Origin: an uncultured Saprospiraceae bacterium
GTDB taxonomy: Bacteria > Bacteroidota > Bacteroidia > Chitinophagales > Saprospiraceae
Length of the DNA stretch: 64,000 nucleotides
Reading direction: 5' to 3'
Assembly (NCBI GenBank): GCA_964486185.1
Contig: CAZALD010000013.1
Span: 34,897 to 98,896, forward strand
The notes under the pieces: generated by a model
Told to the model about the DNA's origin: nothing
The model's database searches: none
What the model saw: the letters and a program-made list of their open reading frames with translations, nothing else
Shown: in pieces, positions 40,571 through 48,306 of the stretch
How positions within the stretch are numbered: position 1 is the stretch's first letter
How the letters are laid out: every line of letters starts with the position of its first letter
Program-made: the position numbers and the translations under genes

Positions 40571-40606
40571 AAATAAATGAGGCAATTTCTTGCCTCATTT
40601 ATTTTT
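40571..40606. terminator. Bidirectional terminator hairpin between convergent genes (15-bp stem, 4-nt loop)
   Basis: aaataaatgaggcaa-tttc-ttgcctcatttattt, flanked by A/T runs. Confidence 0.7.
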
Positions 40607-40653
40607 AGTCTCTGAATTTATTTCAGAAAGCTGGTAATCTCGCGACGTTTTTA

Positions 40654-41046
40654 TTAAAAATTATGATATTCTACATCATTGCCTGCTTTTAAACGAAGGC
40701 GATATTGTTTTCCCGCAGGTAATTTTCCAGCATCTATAGTTAATTCGCCATTGGAATTAATACTAAAACTGCTGGAACCATTGGGTACCAAACCACCATT
40801 CGGATCCAAAACATCATAGCTTAAGTCAATGCCCTGATGCCTTCCTCCGAAGGGTCTTGTTGTTAAGGTCTTGGTTGAGGCATCCTGGCCCATTTGTGCA
40901 GGGTAGCTGACATAAATAGCCGCACAACATTTCAAATCACTGATTGATGTTCTGGTTTTGGAACCCGTCGTGTTTACCTGTGCCAATAAACTACCTGTAA
41001 ACATCATGGCCAGAAACGCCATTGTACATAAAATTGCTTTTTTCAT
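40654..41046 (-). CDS. Small secreted hypothetical protein
   Basis: Signal peptide MKKAILCTMAFLAMMFTGSLLAQ followed by a beta-rich 130-aa ORF. Confidence 0.5.
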   Translation of the reverse strand: MKKAILCTMAFLAMMFTGSLLAQVNTTGSKTRTSISDLKCCAAIYVSYPAQMGQDASTKTLTTRPFGGRHQGIDLSYDVLDPNGGLVPNGSSSFSINSNGELTIDAGKLPAGKQYRLRLKAGNDVEYHNF

Positions 41047-41737
41047 AATTTATACATTTTTGATTAAATAAGTTAATTGTATTTCTGTTGATATGATAAT
41101 AGTACATAGTCGGATGTTAAAATAGTTATCAGAAAAAGAATTAAAAAAATGAATCCTTCCCGATTGAATAAATATAGCCATAATTTATTATTTGGTATGA
41201 AATTTCTGAATATTTTGACATAAAAGTTAAATTAACATGAAAAGTAGTGAATTGATTAAGTTAACTTAGAGTGTTGCAGATCTTTTTTAGTAAAGGGAAC
41301 CTCTAAAAATCTACTTATACTTCGTTATGCAAATTTTTTAAATACCTCATTTACAGAAGTAAAATCGGAATTTAAAAAATTTACATGCCTCGTCTAAGCG
41401 ATTTTTAGAGATTCCCTAAAGTATTAGCTTTAGAGATGCTGATCCGGTAAAATTGACAAATTCTAAATCCATAGCTGCAATTTCGTTAATCAGAAGATGA
41501 TTTATTCTATAATCCGGGGATAATCTTATGACGGATTTCAACAGTTTCAGTGGTAAAGAATTATAATATCTTTCTTATCTTTGTTAGTAACGATTTTTGA
41601 CATAAACTACTGGATAGAGTTACAATTATCAAATTTTCATTTTATAATTTAAGGGTGATAACAAAAACAACGGACCCACTATATTATCATACTAGACTGG
41701 ATTTAAATTCAAGTCAACGATATTAATTTTAGTAATT

Positions 41738-43732
41738 ATGAACTACTTAGGTGTACTTTTTTTCTTAATTTGTATCCTTTCCAGGTTATCAGGGCAAACC
41801 GGATCAGAGAAAAAAGCATTACTTATTGGTATTGGCAAATACCCGGCATCAGGAGGTTGGGCCAGTTTAAGTTCCTCTAATGATATTAAAATAATAAATG
41901 ATGCCCTGATAAAACAAGGATTTAAATCAGAAAATATAAAAGTGGTTTCTGATGAAAATGCAACCCGTCAAAATATTATAGATGCTATAAAAAAAGAATT
42001 GGTTTCCAGCGTAAAAAAAGGCGATATAGCTTATTTTCATTTTTCTGGTCATGGTCAGCAAAAACCAGATCAAGATGGAGATGAAATTGATGGTTATGAT
42101 GAATGCCTGGTGCCTTATGATTCTCCTAAAAAATTCCAGGCAGGTGTCAATGAAGGTCAGTTTCTGATAACTGATGATGAAATCGATGTGTTATTAACCG
42201 ATGTTAGAATACAACTGGGTACTAAAGGACATCTGTTTGTTTCTCTGGATGCTTGTCATTCCGGAACCGGAACACGCGGATCCGCGGTTGGCAGAGGCAG
42301 CACAGAACCTATGGCCGCACCTGATTATATTCAAAAATTGGCCCGGAATAAAAATTTAAAAGAAAATAATAACCTGAGTACTCGTGTTGTCAATTCCTCG
42401 GAAATTGCTCCAATGATTGCTTTTTTTGGGTCTTCTCAAAATCAAATTAATTATGAAATGACCAATGATCAGGGTGAACAATTTGGTTCGTTGAGTTATG
42501 CACTTTCAAAGCATTTGGTTTTATCAAAAAGTGGTGAATCGTATCGGGGCTTATTTGATAAAATTAAAGTAGAGATGGGATCAATTGCTCCAATGCAATT
42601 ACCCCAGGTTGAAGGCGATCTGGATCTGGAAATACTTAATGGTAAGTTATTAGGTTCGCCTGTATATTTTAATGTAATCTCAGCATCTGATGACGATAAC
42701 ATTATGATCAATGGTGGATTTTTGCAGGATCTCAGTGAAGGTTCAAAGCTTGGATTTTATCCAAGTGATACCAGGGAATTGGAAAAAGCCAAAGCTTTGG
42801 TTACCGGAACTATTTCTCAATGTAATCCAACTACTTCTGTAATAAGTCTGGATTCAATTGTCGAACCTCAATTATTAAAAAATTGCTGGGTTTATCTGTT
42901 GGAAAAAAACATGGGCAATTTGGTAGTCAACATTGCAATTGATGTAAAAGATCCTGTCGCAAAAGAAAAGATAAGTGCAAAATTATTATCCTATTCTTTT
43001 ATCAAAGAAAATAATTTAAATTCATCGTTGCTGATTGGCGAAGGTATTCTGGGTAATGGCGAAGCTTATATCTATTTGCGGACCAATCTGGGATATACCT
43101 TGGATAGTTTCAAATTAAAAATGATGAGCCAGGGCGCTATAATTCGGTTTAGTAAAAAAATCTTAGCATATCTTAAAGGGAGTGCATTACGTAAGCTTTC
43201 GCTTCAAAGTGAAGATTACCGACTTAGCTTTAAAATTGTTAAAATTAAAAATGGGAACGTACAATACAACGACAAATCCGAAATCATTACGCTTAAAGAA
43301 GATAATAGCGGCATGAAAAGTATGACTATTGGTGATACTTTTCAAATTCTGATTAAGAATGAAGGAATGCGTCCGGCTTATTTTACACTTATAGATATTC
43401 AGCCAGATAATATGATCACGATATTACTTCCCTCAGATTATCAGACTCCTGAAGAAATGAAAATTCTTCCTGGTATGGAAAAATTGATACCTAATTTCTG
43501 GCAGGTAGGGGAGCCCTTAGGAAATGAAGTATTTAAATTAATATCTTCGAGCAAAGCGATGGATTTAAAATCAACTTATGGTTCCCGTGGTGGCATTTCC
43601 AAAAATCCATTTGAAAAAATGATAGAAGATCTTGAAACCGAAGAATTTTACAGTACCCGGGGAAGCAAACCCGTTTCTACCGGGAGCGTTGAAATAAATA
43701 TGTATTCAGATTCATTTATAATAGTTAAATAA
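41738..43732 (+). CDS. Exported caspase-family (peptidase C14) protein with a DUF4384-like C-terminal region
   Basis: Signal peptide. Catalytic dyad contexts YFHFSGHGQQ (His105) and SLDACHSGTG (Cys173, codon 42254-42256). The C-terminal segment PAYFTLIDIQPDNMITILLPS...GNEVFKLISS resembles DUF4384. Confidence 0.8.
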   Translation: MNYLGVLFFLICILSRLSGQTGSEKKALLIGIGKYPASGGWASLSSSNDIKIINDALIKQGFKSENIKVVSDENATRQNIIDAIKKELVSSVKKGDIAYFHFSGHGQQKPDQDGDEIDGYDECLVPYDSPKKFQAGVNEGQFLITDDEIDVLLTDVRIQLGTKGHLFVSLDACHSGTGTRGSAVGRGSTEPMAAPDYIQKLARNKNLKENNNLSTRVVNSSEIAPMIAFFGSSQNQINYEMTNDQGEQFGSLSYALSKHLVLSKSGESYRGLFDKIKVEMGSIAPMQLPQVEGDLDLEILNGKLLGSPVYFNVISASDDDNIMINGGFLQDLSEGSKLGFYPSDTRELEKAKALVTGTISQCNPTTSVISLDSIVEPQLLKNCWVYLLEKNMGNLVVNIAIDVKDPVAKEKISAKLLSYSFIKENNLNSSLLIGEGILGNGEAYIYLRTNLGYTLDSFKLKMMSQGAIIRFSKKILAYLKGSALRKLSLQSEDYRLSFKIVKIKNGNVQYNDKSEIITLKEDNSGMKSMTIGDTFQILIKNEGMRPAYFTLIDIQPDNMITILLPSDYQTPEEMKILPGMEKLIPNFWQVGEPLGNEVFKLISSSKAMDLKSTYGSRGGISKNPFEKMIEDLETEEFYSTRGSKPVSTGSVEINMYSDSFIIVK

Positions 43733-43738
43733 AAAAAT

Positions 43739-45283
43739 ATGAAAGCGATTAATCTTGTAATTTTTGTTCTGCTTGCCATGTCGGTCAAGGCTCAGGATCT
43801 TCACATTTATTATGATGTGCATAATGACAGTATGTGGTATATGAAAAACAATGAAATTATCGAAGAGCCTATTGTTAAAAAAGGTAAACAAGTCTACTTT
43901 CACCTGGTTGAATTTAATAATTACATTTATCATGCAAAATTTAAGGCTTCGCAAAGTACGGTTCCATTTGGTACACATGTACCCAGTAATAGTTTGGTAA
44001 AAGGATTGTTCTCCGGTTTAATGAGTAGCTTTCTACCTGGTGCTGGAATGGCATTAATGGGCGGAAATCCATTGTTTGGAAATATATTAGGAATGATTCC
44101 AGGAATGAATGGTAACAATGCATCAAGGGGCGGTAATGATGAATTGCAGGCATTTGAATCAAAATTAAAAGAACTAGAAATTGCGAAAGAAGAAATCAAT
44201 AATTTAACTGTAGAAATCAATAATCGCAAAAAATCTGTTACCGCACTCAATACAACTTATGAATTTACCAATTCACTTTGTATGAATAAAAATGTGGCGC
44301 CTTCCAAAATAAAGGAGCTTTTATTAAATCATTGTAGTGAAATATTTTTAAAACCGTCAACTGAAAATATAGGGTTGGATGAAATTCCGAAGCTTAATGC
44401 TAAATTAATTGAAATTCCGGTCTTGGAAAAAACGCTTCAGAAAAAAATTGGTGATTATGCCATTAGTTTAAATGATTTAAAAAATCATCGGCTGCGATTA
44501 CAGCAAATAGATCATGGTGTAGATGCACTTTATCCGTTGATGAAAAAACTTGAGTCTACTGAAAATCAATATGAAAATTCTGTTAAGTTGATCGCTACGC
44601 AGATTGAAAATCAATGTGCAGTTCCTGATCCAAATACTAAATCAGATTATACAAGCCAGATTCAACAATTTTATTTTAAGTACCACGAAATCAAAGACAA
44701 TTCATTTTCTTATACACATCATGCTGAAGCTGAGCAAAAATACCTGATTTATGAGTTGGATTTATTTCAACAAGACAGTATGAGTTTAAAATCAGATGCA
44801 GATAAGAAAAGTATCAAACACATCGAGGTCAAGGTAAAAACATATGGAGGAACGCAGTTTGGAATGAGTGTAGGATTAACAGGTTCAAAGTATAACGAAG
44901 CACCTCAAAGTTATTACATACGCAATGATCTTATTTTTGCTACGGATGATGATAAATATGTCCCATTTATTACTTCTCTATTTAACCTGAGTTATGATGT
45001 GGGATCCTATTTATCCCCGGCAATTTCTTTGGGCATCGGGATACCAATTACCAAATCAGAAAGTATTGATAACATTGCCATTTTTGCAGGCCCCGGAGTA
45101 TACCTTGGCAGGAAACAAGCTTTTATGGTTTCGGCTGGAACCATGTTTTCAAAAGTCAATAGCTTGAGAAATGGTTTTAAAGTAGGCGATAAAATAAGTT
45201 TAGGTGATGGGGACATTCCGACATCTAAAAAATACAGTGTTGGTTACTTTATTAGCTTGACCTACAATATTTCTGCAATGTAA
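43739..45283 (+). CDS. Exported hypothetical protein: Gly/Met-rich segment, coiled coil and a beta-rich C-terminus
   Basis: Signal peptide ending VKAQD, then GLFSGLMSSFLPGAGMALMGGNPLFGNILGMIPGMNG and a heptad-like 150-aa region. The C-terminal 170 aa have an alternating pattern. The start is 6 nt after the caspase stop. Confidence 0.55.
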   Translation: MKAINLVIFVLLAMSVKAQDLHIYYDVHNDSMWYMKNNEIIEEPIVKKGKQVYFHLVEFNNYIYHAKFKASQSTVPFGTHVPSNSLVKGLFSGLMSSFLPGAGMALMGGNPLFGNILGMIPGMNGNNASRGGNDELQAFESKLKELEIAKEEINNLTVEINNRKKSVTALNTTYEFTNSLCMNKNVAPSKIKELLLNHCSEIFLKPSTENIGLDEIPKLNAKLIEIPVLEKTLQKKIGDYAISLNDLKNHRLRLQQIDHGVDALYPLMKKLESTENQYENSVKLIATQIENQCAVPDPNTKSDYTSQIQQFYFKYHEIKDNSFSYTHHAEAEQKYLIYELDLFQQDSMSLKSDADKKSIKHIEVKVKTYGGTQFGMSVGLTGSKYNEAPQSYYIRNDLIFATDDDKYVPFITSLFNLSYDVGSYLSPAISLGIGIPITKSESIDNIAIFAGPGVYLGRKQAFMVSAGTMFSKVNSLRNGFKVGDKISLGDGDIPTSKKYSVGYFISLTYNISAM

Positions 45284-45337: not shown

Positions 45338-45382
45338 CCAGGAATAGAATTTACTTTATAAATTGAAAAATTCTATTCCTGG
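45338..45382. terminator. 15-bp perfect hairpin between convergent genes
   Basis: ccaggaatagaattt ... aaattctattcctgg with a 15-nt loop. There is no strong T-run, so terminator function is uncertain. Confidence 0.45.
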
Positions 45383-45462: not shown

Positions 45463-46842
45463 TTAATGCTGAAAAATTATTTTACCAGATGAAAAATCAC
45501 TTTGCAATTTTTCATAGATGGATTTTAATTCAGATTCTGTCCATTCATATTTTTCATCAAGACAAATTTTACTCAAAAGCATATCCTGCTTACGTCCCTG
45601 TATCATGGCATCCCTGTATCTGATATCAGGTCTGAATGTTACCATGGCATACTTTGAATAATACTCCGGAAAAAGTTTTTCAAGCTGCAGCTCAAGAATT
45701 CGCTTGCGTTGGAACACAGGATCAGCAACTTTATCTCTCATTTCTAAAAAATTATCTTCAGCAAGATCAGCTATGGCGTCTGCATCTGGTTTTCTCAGAC
45801 TTGAAAAATCTTCAAATAAAGTAAGCCAATCAGAATAGTTATTCAGCATATTATCAAAAACCAAAACATCTTCAAAGCCGCAATTCATTCCCTGACCGTA
45901 AAATGGAATTAATGCGTGTGCGGCATCCCCCATTAATAAAATGCGATCATCAAAATGCCAGGGTTCACATTTGACAGTATATAAATGACCCGTTGGGTTT
46001 TCAAAAAACTCCTGATGAAGATCAGGAATCCACTGAATGGCATCTGGAAAATTAATTTTAAAAAATTGATTTAGTGCATCTTTATTTTCCAAAGAATCAA
46101 ATCCATCATTTCCTTTGTAAGGTAAAAACAGGGTGGCTGTATAGGTTGCATCCGGATTGGGTAAAGCAATCATCATAAAATGCCCTCTGGGCCAGATATG
46201 TAATGCATTTTTCTCAATAACAAATGCATTGTTAGGACCCGGTGGAATAGTTAGTTCCTTATAACCATAATTTTGAAAAACCTGGCTATAATTAAATCTT
46301 AATTGTGGTGTGAAATCATATAGTAATTTTCGGGCAACAGATGATGCACCATCCGTTCCAATTAAGACACAATTTTCTTCAGTAATAAAAGTTTCTTCCT
46401 TTGTTTCAAAAATAAATTTTTGAAAATGATCTTCCTGAGAGACAAGCCGTGTTTTAAAATGGATAGCATTGGGTTTTATTTTTTCTATGGCATCCATCAA
46501 AATTTCGTTTAAAGTTTTTCTGGATATCGAATTAATATGTTCACCTGGACGACTGCTGTATTCCTGATAATTTAAATTACCCTGAATCGAATGAATCATC
46601 CGTCCTTTCATTTGAATTGCATGACTTAATATGTCTTTGTCGATTCCTGCCAGTTTTAAAGCCACAATACCGCGATGCGATAAAGCAAGATTTATAGATC
46701 GTCCGGCACTCATTTGTTCTTTTCTCAGATCGCTGCGGGATTCATAAATACTTACATCAAATCCCCGTTGCAATAATCGTAAACCCAGCAGACTGCCTAC
46801 CAAACCAGAGCCGGCAATAACAATTTTTTGTTTATGATCCAT
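45463..46842 (-). CDS. kmo: Kynurenine 3-monooxygenase (FAD-dependent)
   Basis: N-terminal dinucleotide fold IAGSGLVGSLLGL, the LMGDAAHA motif, about 460 aa, and an 11-nt overlap with kynureninase. Confidence 0.75.
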   Translation of the reverse strand: MDHKQKIVIAGSGLVGSLLGLRLLQRGFDVSIYESRSDLRKEQMSAGRSINLALSHRGIVALKLAGIDKDILSHAIQMKGRMIHSIQGNLNYQEYSSRPGEHINSISRKTLNEILMDAIEKIKPNAIHFKTRLVSQEDHFQKFIFETKEETFITEENCVLIGTDGASSVARKLLYDFTPQLRFNYSQVFQNYGYKELTIPPGPNNAFVIEKNALHIWPRGHFMMIALPNPDATYTATLFLPYKGNDGFDSLENKDALNQFFKINFPDAIQWIPDLHQEFFENPTGHLYTVKCEPWHFDDRILLMGDAAHALIPFYGQGMNCGFEDVLVFDNMLNNYSDWLTLFEDFSSLRKPDADAIADLAEDNFLEMRDKVADPVFQRKRILELQLEKLFPEYYSKYAMVTFRPDIRYRDAMIQGRKQDMLLSKICLDEKYEWTESELKSIYEKLQSDFSSGKIIFQH

Positions 46843-48100
46843 TTTTTAAGACTTCTTTTACAATTTGGACAAAATCATAGACTTCCGTAAATGTATTGTA
46901 AAATGGTACCGGTGCAATCCTGATTACATCGGGCTCACGCCAGTCTGCTACAACACCCCGTTTAGTGACTTGATCAAATACATTGCGGTTAGCATTTTTT
47001 ATTTTTATGGAAATCTGACATCCTCGTTCTGATTCATTTGAAGGAGTAATGATCGAAATATCCGGGTTATTTAACTCTTCTAGCAGTTCAAATAATAGTT
47101 TACTCAGAGCCATTGATTTATTTCTGAGATTGCCAATGCCGGCTTTAGTAAAAAGTTCAAAAGAAGCATTCAGACAAGCCATTGGTAAAATGGGAGGATT
47201 GCTAAGCTGCCATGCTTCAGCACCAACCATGGGTTCAAATTGAGCCTGCATCTTAAATCGTGTTTTCTTATTATGTCCCCACCATCCGCAAAATCTGGGA
47301 AGTTGGGTATTTTGAGAATGACGCTCATGAATAAAACATCCCGCCAGGCTACCTGGTCCGCCATTTAAATATTTATATCCGCACCAGATTGCAAAGTCAG
47401 GACCACTTTCATGCAAATTCAAAAGTAAATTTCCTGCACCGTGTGCCAAATCAAAACCAATCCTGCATCCGGATTGATGTGCCAGTCTGGTCATATGTGT
47501 AATAGGATACGCCTGGCCGGTATAATAATTTACTGAGCCAATTAGCGCCAGGGCAATTTGATTTCCTTCTTTTTGAAAAACATTTTCAATATTTTGAAGG
47601 GAAATATAATCCGTTCCGGCATCCGGTTCTAAAATAATTAATGAATCTTTCGGATCATATCCATGAAACCTGATTTGAGATTCTACCGCATATCTGTCTG
47701 ATGGGAAACTACTATATTCGATTAATATTTTATGTCGATTTTGAGTTGGCTTATAAAAAGAAACCATCATCAAATGAAGATTTACAGTCAAAGTATTCAT
47801 GACAATAGTTTCGATAGGTTTTGCACCTACAATCTCAGCCATGCGCTCAGTTAATAATTCATGGTAACTATACCATGGGTTTTTTGCTTTATGATGGCCT
47901 TCCACTCCATAAGCTGCCCAATCTGATAATTCCTGCACAACAAAATCTTTGGTACTGCGGGGTTGCAAACCCAGGGAATTACCACAGAAATAGATCAATT
48001 CTTTATTATCATTGGATTTTGGAATTAGAAATTCATTTCGAAACGATTTTAAAGAATCCGCTTCATCCAGCATTAATGCATCCGATCTTTGAAAATTCAT
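46832..48100 (-). CDS. kynU: Kynureninase (PLP-dependent)
   Basis: Conserved GYKYLNGGPG PLP-lysine region and WWGH. I prefer the ATG at 48100 over the TTG at 48118. Confidence 0.8.
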   Translation of the reverse strand: MNFQRSDALMLDEADSLKSFRNEFLIPKSNDNKELIYFCGNSLGLQPRSTKDFVVQELSDWAAYGVEGHHKAKNPWYSYHELLTERMAEIVGAKPIETIVMNTLTVNLHLMMVSFYKPTQNRHKILIEYSSFPSDRYAVESQIRFHGYDPKDSLIILEPDAGTDYISLQNIENVFQKEGNQIALALIGSVNYYTGQAYPITHMTRLAHQSGCRIGFDLAHGAGNLLLNLHESGPDFAIWCGYKYLNGGPGSLAGCFIHERHSQNTQLPRFCGWWGHNKKTRFKMQAQFEPMVGAEAWQLSNPPILPMACLNASFELFTKAGIGNLRNKSMALSKLLFELLEELNNPDISIITPSNESERGCQISIKIKNANRNVFDQVTKRGVVADWREPDVIRIAPVPFYNTFTEVYDFVQIVKEVLKNGS

Positions 48101-48306
48101 AAACAACTTTGAGCTCAAATTTAAGTAATTTGAATACAGGACAAGCTTCTGGTAGCTGACAAAGAAAAAATTATCTTTACTTTATTGAATATCAATTATT
48201 TAAAATAAATATACCCTGTCAAATTCGGCGGGTTTATTCATTGGCACTTGCTTTTATGCTTTATATGACTATGGTCATTTGTAAAGATTCCAATTAAATT
48301 CGCACT

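Follow-up and report, generated by a model that had tools for sequence, protein, structure and literature searches.

A 64,000-nucleotide stretch of DNA from an uncultured Saprospiraceae bacterium (assembly GCA_964486185.1, contig CAZALD010000013.1, positions 34,897 to 98,896; hereafter the window, with coordinates counted from its first nucleotide) encodes a caspase-family protease followed by a second protein, and the two were found to constitute a genuine conserved exported pair, as supported by their joint occurrence in related genomes. The two open reading frames (ORFs) are co-oriented on the forward strand at 41738-43732 (664 amino acids, the protease) and 43739-45283 (514 amino acids, hereafter the partner) and are separated by a 6-nt spacer. 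GC content is even throughout this region, and nothing suggests that it was recently acquired. We propose, with a probability of roughly 45%, that the first product is a periplasmic arginine-specific protease controlled by a sigma factor of the extracytoplasmic function (ECF) type, that it acts on or with an outer-membrane partner, and that cleavage of this partner between Arg130 and Gly131 is the most likely event.

Loci for comparison were gathered by look-ups of single relatives and by a scan of one genome per species, and homologues of both genes were located in each. The species scan returned 23 loci, every one from Saprospiraceae or Chitinophagales, and one of them belongs to a cultured strain, Flavilitoribacter nigricans DSM 23189. 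The initial annotation, made from the window alone, had described the two genes as a coupled pair, and this coupling was borne out by their co-occurrence: a caspase-family gene was adjacent to or near the partner gene in 24 of the 25 evaluable loci, and in 21 of the 25 it was a DUF4384-type caspase directly upstream. Elsewhere the nearby gene encoded a short caspase with the protease domain alone (locus L030), a caspase-TPR protein (L028), or a WD40-caspase located two genes away on the opposite strand (L029); only one locus (L022) had no caspase near its partner. Adjacency held from 85% to 26% partner identity with the surrounding genes otherwise unrelated, and the clearest distant partner (L008) aligned over its full length with an hhalign E-value of 7.7e-62. 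Most metagenome loci with flanking sequence also carried a caspase gene near the partner. Some paralogous caspases lack the partner and are paired with another exported protein (L009) or with a trypsin-like protease (L007). DUF4384-type paralogues directly paired with an exported HExxH/TPR protein were observed at L009 8001-11696, L011 14-3696 and L024 2886-6546, and this is a second recurrent caspase-neighbour arrangement in the same genomes. The 556-amino-acid product of the downstream gene in L009 was considered as a partner homologue and rejected; it belongs to this HExxH/TPR family.

Sequence and model comparisons place the protease in the metacaspase/orthocaspase branch of family C14, with a predicted caspase/haemoglobinase fold. 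The earlier identification of a C14 protease with a DUF4384-like C-terminal segment stands, as both Pfam matches exceed their curated cut-offs: Peptidase_C14 (PF00656) covers residues 25-293 with an E-value of 1.2e-20 and 74.7 bits against a cut-off of 21.4, and DUF4384 (PF14326) covers residues 531-606 with an E-value of 8.1e-8 and 32.7 bits against a cut-off of 27. The DUF4384 annotation is also precomputed in many homologues. The catalytic dyad, likewise described from the outset as intact, is formed by His105 of an SGHG motif (codon 42050-42052, forward strand) and Cys173 of a DACHSG motif (codon 42254-42256), and both residues, together with Asp171, are invariant among 44 full-length homologues of 35-72% identity. 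The closest solved relatives by sequence are the metacaspases Yca1 from yeast (4f6o, E-value 1.4e-13), MCA1 from Candida, MC4 and MC9 from Arabidopsis, MCA2 from Trypanosoma, and GSU0716 from Geobacter, with the Yca1 alignment taking in the HxSGHG..DGDExDGxDE and DxCHSGT motifs.

An AlphaFold2 model of the protease was built on the alignment of the 44 homologues (mean predicted local distance difference test score, pLDDT, 86; predicted template modelling score, pTM, 0.84). The predicted layout consists of a signal peptide (residues 1-19), the C14 domain (25-300), a beta domain (311-402), an alpha/beta domain (406-486), a DUF4384 sandwich (496-606), and a C-terminal tail containing two conserved Arg-Gly loops. 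What had been taken for an unassigned middle region of roughly 350 residues is thus about 190 residues long and is modelled as the two folded domains at 311-402 and 406-486. Foldseek searches with this model retrieved GSU0716 (3bij) and metacaspases 9, 4 and that of yeast with E-values near 1e-13 and target template modelling (TM) scores of at most 0.71, ranking GSU0716 and the metacaspases above animal caspases and legumain. Because all characterized C14 enzymes other than animal caspases cleave after Arg or Lys (PMC5756287), the same specificity is expected of this protease from its family membership and motifs.

The partner (43739-45283) could not be assigned to a family. Searches against Pfam, NCBIfam and PADLOC gave no family match, only coiled-coil noise, and a profile of 112 relatives compared with PDB sequences gave no credible match beyond the same noise; no paper on the family was found in the literature. 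The possibility, raised with the initial annotation, that the partner would turn out to be a member of a well-characterized family unrelated to proteolysis therefore found no support in these databases. A word-index search returned 26 relatives, all from Saprospiraceae metagenome-assembled genomes, and an exhaustive profile search returned 193 clusters at E-values below 1e-30 and 509 below 1e-10, nearly all of them full-length at 500-540 amino acids. The family is thus sizeable and is unnamed in Pfam and NCBIfam.

An AlphaFold2 model of the partner, built on 23 relatives with a pLDDT of 78, divides the protein into several regions. A signal peptide recognized by a pattern heuristic (residues 1-18) is followed by a predicted six-stranded beta domain (19-75; 21-73 in the model), and conservation within the protein is highest in this N-terminal domain. 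The Gly/Met/Leu/Pro-rich stretch that had drawn attention initially is real, and corresponds to a linker (residues 78-130) modelled as disordered, with pLDDT below 50. The segment described as a long coiled coil is modelled instead as a bundle of six helices (residues 133-320), and residues 324-512 form a predicted meander of long strands and short turns. Across the 112 relatives, four strands (372-385, 425-436, 443-456 and 495-510) have one face that is 0.69-0.83 hydrophobic and an opposite face that is 0.55-0.78 Gly, Ser, Thr, Asn or Gln. This C-terminal region has almost no charges and is 13.6% Gly, and its invariant residues are mostly Gly or Pro. The family ends 1-4 residues past a conserved Y/F-N-[IL], and the last strand is rich in aromatic residues. 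With the whole partner as query, the top 18 Foldseek matches were all outer-membrane barrels (FadL, OmpA, NspA, OpcA, OmpW, Ail and porins), none of them significant, and a few STAT cores, lysenin and secretins appeared lower in the list. The model, the strand pattern and these weak matches indicate that residues 357-512 (44807-45274, forward strand) probably form a small outer-membrane beta-barrel, in which case the rest of the partner would lie in the periplasm.

Both proteins begin with a hydrophobic segment followed by a small-x-small pattern and Gln at the presumed cleavage point (LSG / Q in the protease, VKA / Q in the partner), as does a small protein of 130 amino acids encoded upstream (LLA / Q), referred to here as up130. 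Signal peptides were called with this pattern as a heuristic, which agrees with the Q-rule for signal peptidase I substrates in Bacteroidetes (PMC5837995), and among relatives the pattern is kept in 106 of 112 for the partner and in 32 of 43 for the caspase. The signal peptides claimed for both proteins at the start are therefore consistent with conservation across the two families. Neither sequence contains a lipoprotein box, and neither has a Pfam or NCBIfam match to a C-terminal sorting domain of the type IX secretion system (T9SS; Por_Secre_tail, type B); this leaves the periplasm or the outer membrane as the default destination, and a periplasmic location is inferred for the protease. The contrast first drawn with cytoplasmic caspase modules overlooks the periplasmic TPR-CHAT domain of DdvA (PMC11506125) and earlier computational reports of exported metacaspases (PMC3501461).

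A candidate cleavage site was recognized in the partner at Arg130-Gly131 (codons 44126-44131, forward strand). Arg130 is the only invariant Arg among the 23 relatives, and is located where the disordered linker meets the first helix. Where the neighbouring caspase is of the DUF4384 type, the linker of the partner always ends in [Ala/Ser/Gly]-Arg-Gly, and partners beside TPR- or WD40-type caspases have Gly-Phe-Gly at this position. The TPR- and WD40-type caspases are themselves without the DGDExDGxDE motif and read DAC[R/N]SGK. The protease is also enriched in Arg-Gly, with 5 occurrences against 1.35 expected (184 of 20,000 shuffles reached 5, p ~0.009), and its family contains 270 against 84 expected. 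Low-confidence loops of the AlphaFold2 model contain three conserved sites, R180, R617 and R641, and the conserved R186 lies just past the R180 loop in a Gly-rich stretch after the catalytic Cys, which is modelled with moderate confidence. This pattern is suggestive of self-processing sites, as would be expected in an Arg-specific protease. From the sequence conservation and the predicted disorder, cleavage of the partner at Arg130-Gly131 by the protease is put forward as a hypothesis with somewhat less than even odds.

The pair was initially described as sitting alone, and this description does not hold, as most relatives carry the pair within a larger cluster and, in the window, it is accompanied upstream by the divergent up130 gene, a companion that is itself conserved. 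Among more distant relatives in the Saprospiraceae the pair comprises the first two genes, and the same genes follow in the same order. These encode an ECF-type sigma factor of about 190 amino acids (the L008 copy is above the Pfam cut-offs for both Sigma70_r2 and r4), a protein of about 270 amino acids whose anti-sigma-like N-terminus is accompanied by a single membrane segment and a TPR domain, an exported protein of about 520 amino acids with an invariant HExxH motif and TPR repeats, a CHASE2 membrane protein without an output domain, an exported DUF928-like protein of about 310 amino acids (g308), and one or two copies of up130. Sigma and anti-sigma genes are directly downstream of the pair in at least 13 relatives, and the gaps between partner and sigma genes are 21-101 nt, consistent with a single transcript. 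The g308 family aligns with a Flavilitoribacter protein (hhalign probability 96.8%, E-value 2.6e-10) that has a sub-threshold DUF928 match; g308 proteins searched directly against Pfam gave nothing. Relatives with 55-65% partner identity (L005 and L010-L014) have the same reduced layout as the window, with up130 on the reverse strand followed by the caspase and the partner.

A second partner subfamily, known from metagenomes, is found beside CHASE2, g308-like, HExxH/TPR and caspase-TPR genes, or beside histidine kinases. At L034 6690-11745 and L035 542-7604 the partner relatives are located between a histidine kinase and a response regulator, with no ECF sigma pair, which points to an exchange of the signalling output module. 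At L029 2526-10503, the Flavilitoribacter nigricans DSM 23189 locus, a partner of the Gly-Phe-Gly type is divergent from HExxH/TPR, DUF928-like and WD40-caspase genes.

A candidate ECF-type promoter for the caspase/partner operon, TGATAAC-N17-TATA, was identified on the forward strand at 41656-41683, 81 nt before the caspase ATG. This is the sole exact match on either strand of the 64 kb. The motif occurs at the same place in at least 13 loci, also precedes g308 genes, and stands out as the one conserved block among seven aligned upstream regions; its regulon-wide form before caspase operons, g308 genes and up130 genes is TGATAAC-N16/17-TAyA. With a -35 element ending in AAC, and a position before an operon that includes a sigma gene in relatives, it therefore resembles an autoregulated ECF promoter. 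The motif is presumably read by the ECF sigma factor of the cluster, and this factor would be encoded elsewhere than in the window.

The up130 gene is located at 40654-41046 on the reverse strand. Its product starts with a signal peptide ending before Gln and further contains a low-complexity stretch, a Lys-Cys-Cys motif that is conserved, and a beta-rich domain about 90 amino acids long; it had no match in Pfam. In 12 loci, homologues either neighbour the caspase/partner genes or stand last in the larger cluster. Of 13 up130-family genes, 9 have TGATAAC at 72-154 nt upstream, and one of these is the copy in the window (41131-41125, reverse strand), where it forms part of a candidate sigma-dependent promoter, TGATAAC-N16-TATG (41105-41131, reverse strand). 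This candidate is at a position common to relatives and starts 84 nt before the ATG, with a -10 part that is a near match only. The 690 bp upstream of the caspase, regarded at first as a non-coding leader, are best interpreted as a divergent promoter region in which the cluster motif is present and which serves two regulon units. Neither this region nor the operon has a credible match in Rfam. The motif also precedes arrays of four small exported Cys-containing proteins at L026 13825-16540 and a Gly-rich up130-type protein at L018 16492-17211, and the regulon may include families of small secreted proteins.

Under the mechanism we favour, the locus would represent three members of an envelope regulon dependent on an ECF-type sigma factor encoded outside the window, with up130 transcribed leftwards and the two-gene caspase/partner operon transcribed rightwards. 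The first product of the operon would be a Sec-exported cysteine protease that cuts after Arg or Lys in the periplasm. The partner would be an envelope protein of a new kind, anchored in the outer membrane by its small C-terminal barrel, with the helical bundle and the flexibly tethered, conserved N-terminal beta domain in the periplasm. By cutting the disordered linker at Arg130-Gly131 the protease would free this N-terminal domain, and self-processing of the protease at its conserved Arg-Gly loops is probable as well. The pair is apparently co-transcribed in relatives with sigma, anti-sigma, HExxH/TPR, CHASE2 and DUF928-like genes and is therefore taken to be part of an envelope sensing or proteolysis circuit, and not a stand-alone toxin or a nutrient-degrading enzyme. 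The suggestion of a protease with an envelope substrate, made when the pair was first described, is plausible in this light. A further extension, that the partner family is a new outer-membrane signal transducer from which the metacaspase frees the N-terminal domain as a diffusible messenger to the CHASE2 protein, the DUF928-like protein or the anti-sigma factor, is considered rather unlikely.

Several observations weigh against this proposal. The conserved Arg-Gly at R270 of the protease is located in a helix, and therefore not every Arg-Gly can be a cleavage site. In the wider partner family the linker contains Arg-Gly in only 50 of 112 members (~45%). Asp-Ala-Cys is kept in TPR-type caspases too, so that the linker motif co-varies with the type of protease without an obvious change in the specificity pocket. 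The anti-sigma factor was considered as a caspase substrate and rejected, since no conserved Arg-Gly was found around its membrane segment, which leaves a direct link between the protease and the release of sigma unsupported. Homologues of the sigma, anti-sigma, CHASE2, HExxH/TPR and g308 genes were not found within the 64-kb window. For the barrel, Foldseek support is weak, with a best E-value of 2e-3 and low TM-scores when the whole partner is the query, and the partner ends in ...GYFISLTYNISAM, with a final residue that is not aromatic, unlike that of classical outer-membrane proteins.

Much of this evidence would also be compatible with a partner that is not a substrate, but serves in the outer membrane as a dock or regulator and holds the protease, for example through DUF4384 or through its own N-terminal beta domain, while other envelope proteins, such as the small Cys-containing products of the regulon, are cut. 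The synteny shows coupling without direction, high conservation of the N-terminal domain is what a binding surface would require, up130-type genes have a promoter motif and a neighbourhood in common with the pair, and the linker motif of the wider family is not always Arg-Gly. Docking alone, however, hardly explains why a poorly conserved disordered linker should end in an invariant Arg-Gly, and we regard this account as unlikely, if well worth weighing. It is improbable that the pair is a surface or extracellular device that degrades proteins for feeding or attack, with the partner as an anchor or export aid. Such a role would suit two exported proteins from a family rich in metacaspase genes (28 in Haliscomenobacter; PMC3501461), but the two proteins carry neither a T9SS C-terminal domain nor a lipoprotein box, a small barrel would be unable to export a 70-kDa protein, and the links to sigma and anti-sigma factors, CHASE2 and histidine kinases point to signalling.

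By analogy with gasdermins, the pair could also be a protease-activated pore or a cell-death or defence module, as had been suggested for the pore at the outset. A caspase-family protease beside a beta-rich membrane protein with a removable N-terminal piece invites the comparison, the protease matches the generic PADLOC caspase model, and lysenin is among the weak Foldseek matches. The partner, however, resembles neither gasdermins nor any PADLOC family, both proteins would lie outside the cytoplasm, the flanking genes are housekeeping genes and not a defence island, and the beta region resembles a constitutive monomeric barrel; a protease-activated pore has no specific support, and we judge a module of this kind to be very doubtful. 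That the two genes are functionally unrelated neighbours by chance can be dismissed almost entirely, given the adjacency kept amid different neighbourhoods, the 6-nt spacer and the one promoter common to both genes.

The hairpin originally pointed out at 45338-45382 is present, with a 15-bp stem and no assigned strand, in the intergenic region between the convergent partner and kynurenine 3-monooxygenase genes. This region has a z-score of -3.1, the hairpin gave only a sub-threshold palindrome match in Rfam, and it is probably a bidirectional terminator. The overlapping genes for kynurenine 3-monooxygenase and kynureninase (45463-48118, reverse strand) have no relation to the caspase pair. Between prfC and the up130 gene, a sub-threshold Rfam match to STnc40 at 40573-40634 (reverse strand; 29.3 bits against a gathering cut-off of 45, E-value 0.042) is most likely just a terminator hairpin.

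Comparison with known systems indicates that this one differs from them in having a free exported C14 enzyme, a separate CHASE2 protein, an added HExxH/TPR protease, and a genetically fixed, unnamed partner that is probably an outer-membrane protein. With the C14B metacaspases and orthocaspases (Yca1, 4f6o; MCA2, 4af8; GSU0716, 3bij; Microcystis MaOC1) the protease has in common the fold, the His-Cys dyad and the HxSGHG, DGDExDGxDE and DxCHSG motifs, and the caspase plus DUF4384 architecture has been catalogued in cyanobacteria (PMC8283722, PMC7475262). Unlike those metacaspases, the Saprospiraceae protease has a Sec signal peptide that would place it outside the cytoplasm, two extra predicted domains between C14 and DUF4384, four conserved Arg-Gly loops, and a fixed neighbour gene without a family assignment. 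Possible signal peptides on bacterial metacaspases, metacaspase-sigma operons, and a record 28 metacaspase genes in Haliscomenobacter, a member of the Saprospiraceae, were already noted in 2012 (PMC3501461). Neither a gasdermin nor another known effector of caspase-linked defence systems was found at this locus with PADLOC, in which the protease matched just the generic caspase model and the partner had no match, and the signal peptides on both proteins also set the pair apart from such systems.

In sigma signalling, just one periplasmic caspase-fold domain has been studied experimentally, namely the TPR-CHAT domain of Myxococcus xanthus DdvA, a transmembrane anti-sigma factor that carries this caspase-like domain in the periplasm and whose ECF sigma factor is DdvS (PMC11506125). 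Both systems would combine a caspase-fold protein in the periplasm with an ECF sigma/anti-sigma system, and cleavage of a flexible linker has been proposed in both. The CHAT domain is fused to the anti-sigma factor in DdvA, whereas here a separate soluble C14 protease is predicted, to which are added a partner in the outer membrane, an HExxH protease, CHASE2 and a DUF928-like protein; in addition, sigma and anti-sigma genes are not adjacent in this window, and the regulon is not a defence island. Systems with an EACC2-caspase, at times with CHASE2, and a neighbouring ECF sigma and TPR/DUF1822 gene, often with DUF928, were described computationally by Kaur, Burroughs, Iyer and Aravind in 2021 (PMC8195603). 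Relatives of the present locus likewise have caspase, CHASE2, ECF sigma, TPR and DUF928-like proteins. They differ in that no EACC2 domain is present (the caspase domain starts at residue 25, right after the signal peptide) and in that caspase and CHASE2 are separate proteins, with the caspase outside the cytoplasm; the EACC2-caspase systems were described without an outer-membrane partner family or an HExxH/TPR protease. An analogy, and only that, may be drawn with FecA-FecR-FecI, where an outer-membrane barrel with a small N-terminal periplasmic domain is linked to an anti-sigma factor and an ECF sigma factor, as would be the case in relatives of this locus. Unlike FecA-FecR-FecI, there is no TonB-dependent receptor, Plug or FecR homology here, the barrel is small, and a dedicated caspase-type protease is present.

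Caspase homologues are abundant in bacteria, especially in Saprospiraceae, and a substrate or role is known for almost none of them. The locus described here supplies three handles: a candidate substrate or partner that is fixed genetically, a cleavage site predicted at Arg130-Gly131, and a predicted promoter. Together these make the enzyme-substrate-regulator hypothesis directly testable. If the partner were shown to be an outer-membrane protein processed by a periplasmic metacaspase, this would be the first function for an extracytoplasmic bacterial caspase homologue and would add a new component to ECF sigma envelope signalling. Should the freed N-terminal domain prove to act as a messenger, the system would represent protease-gated cell-surface signalling that operates without a TonB-dependent receptor.

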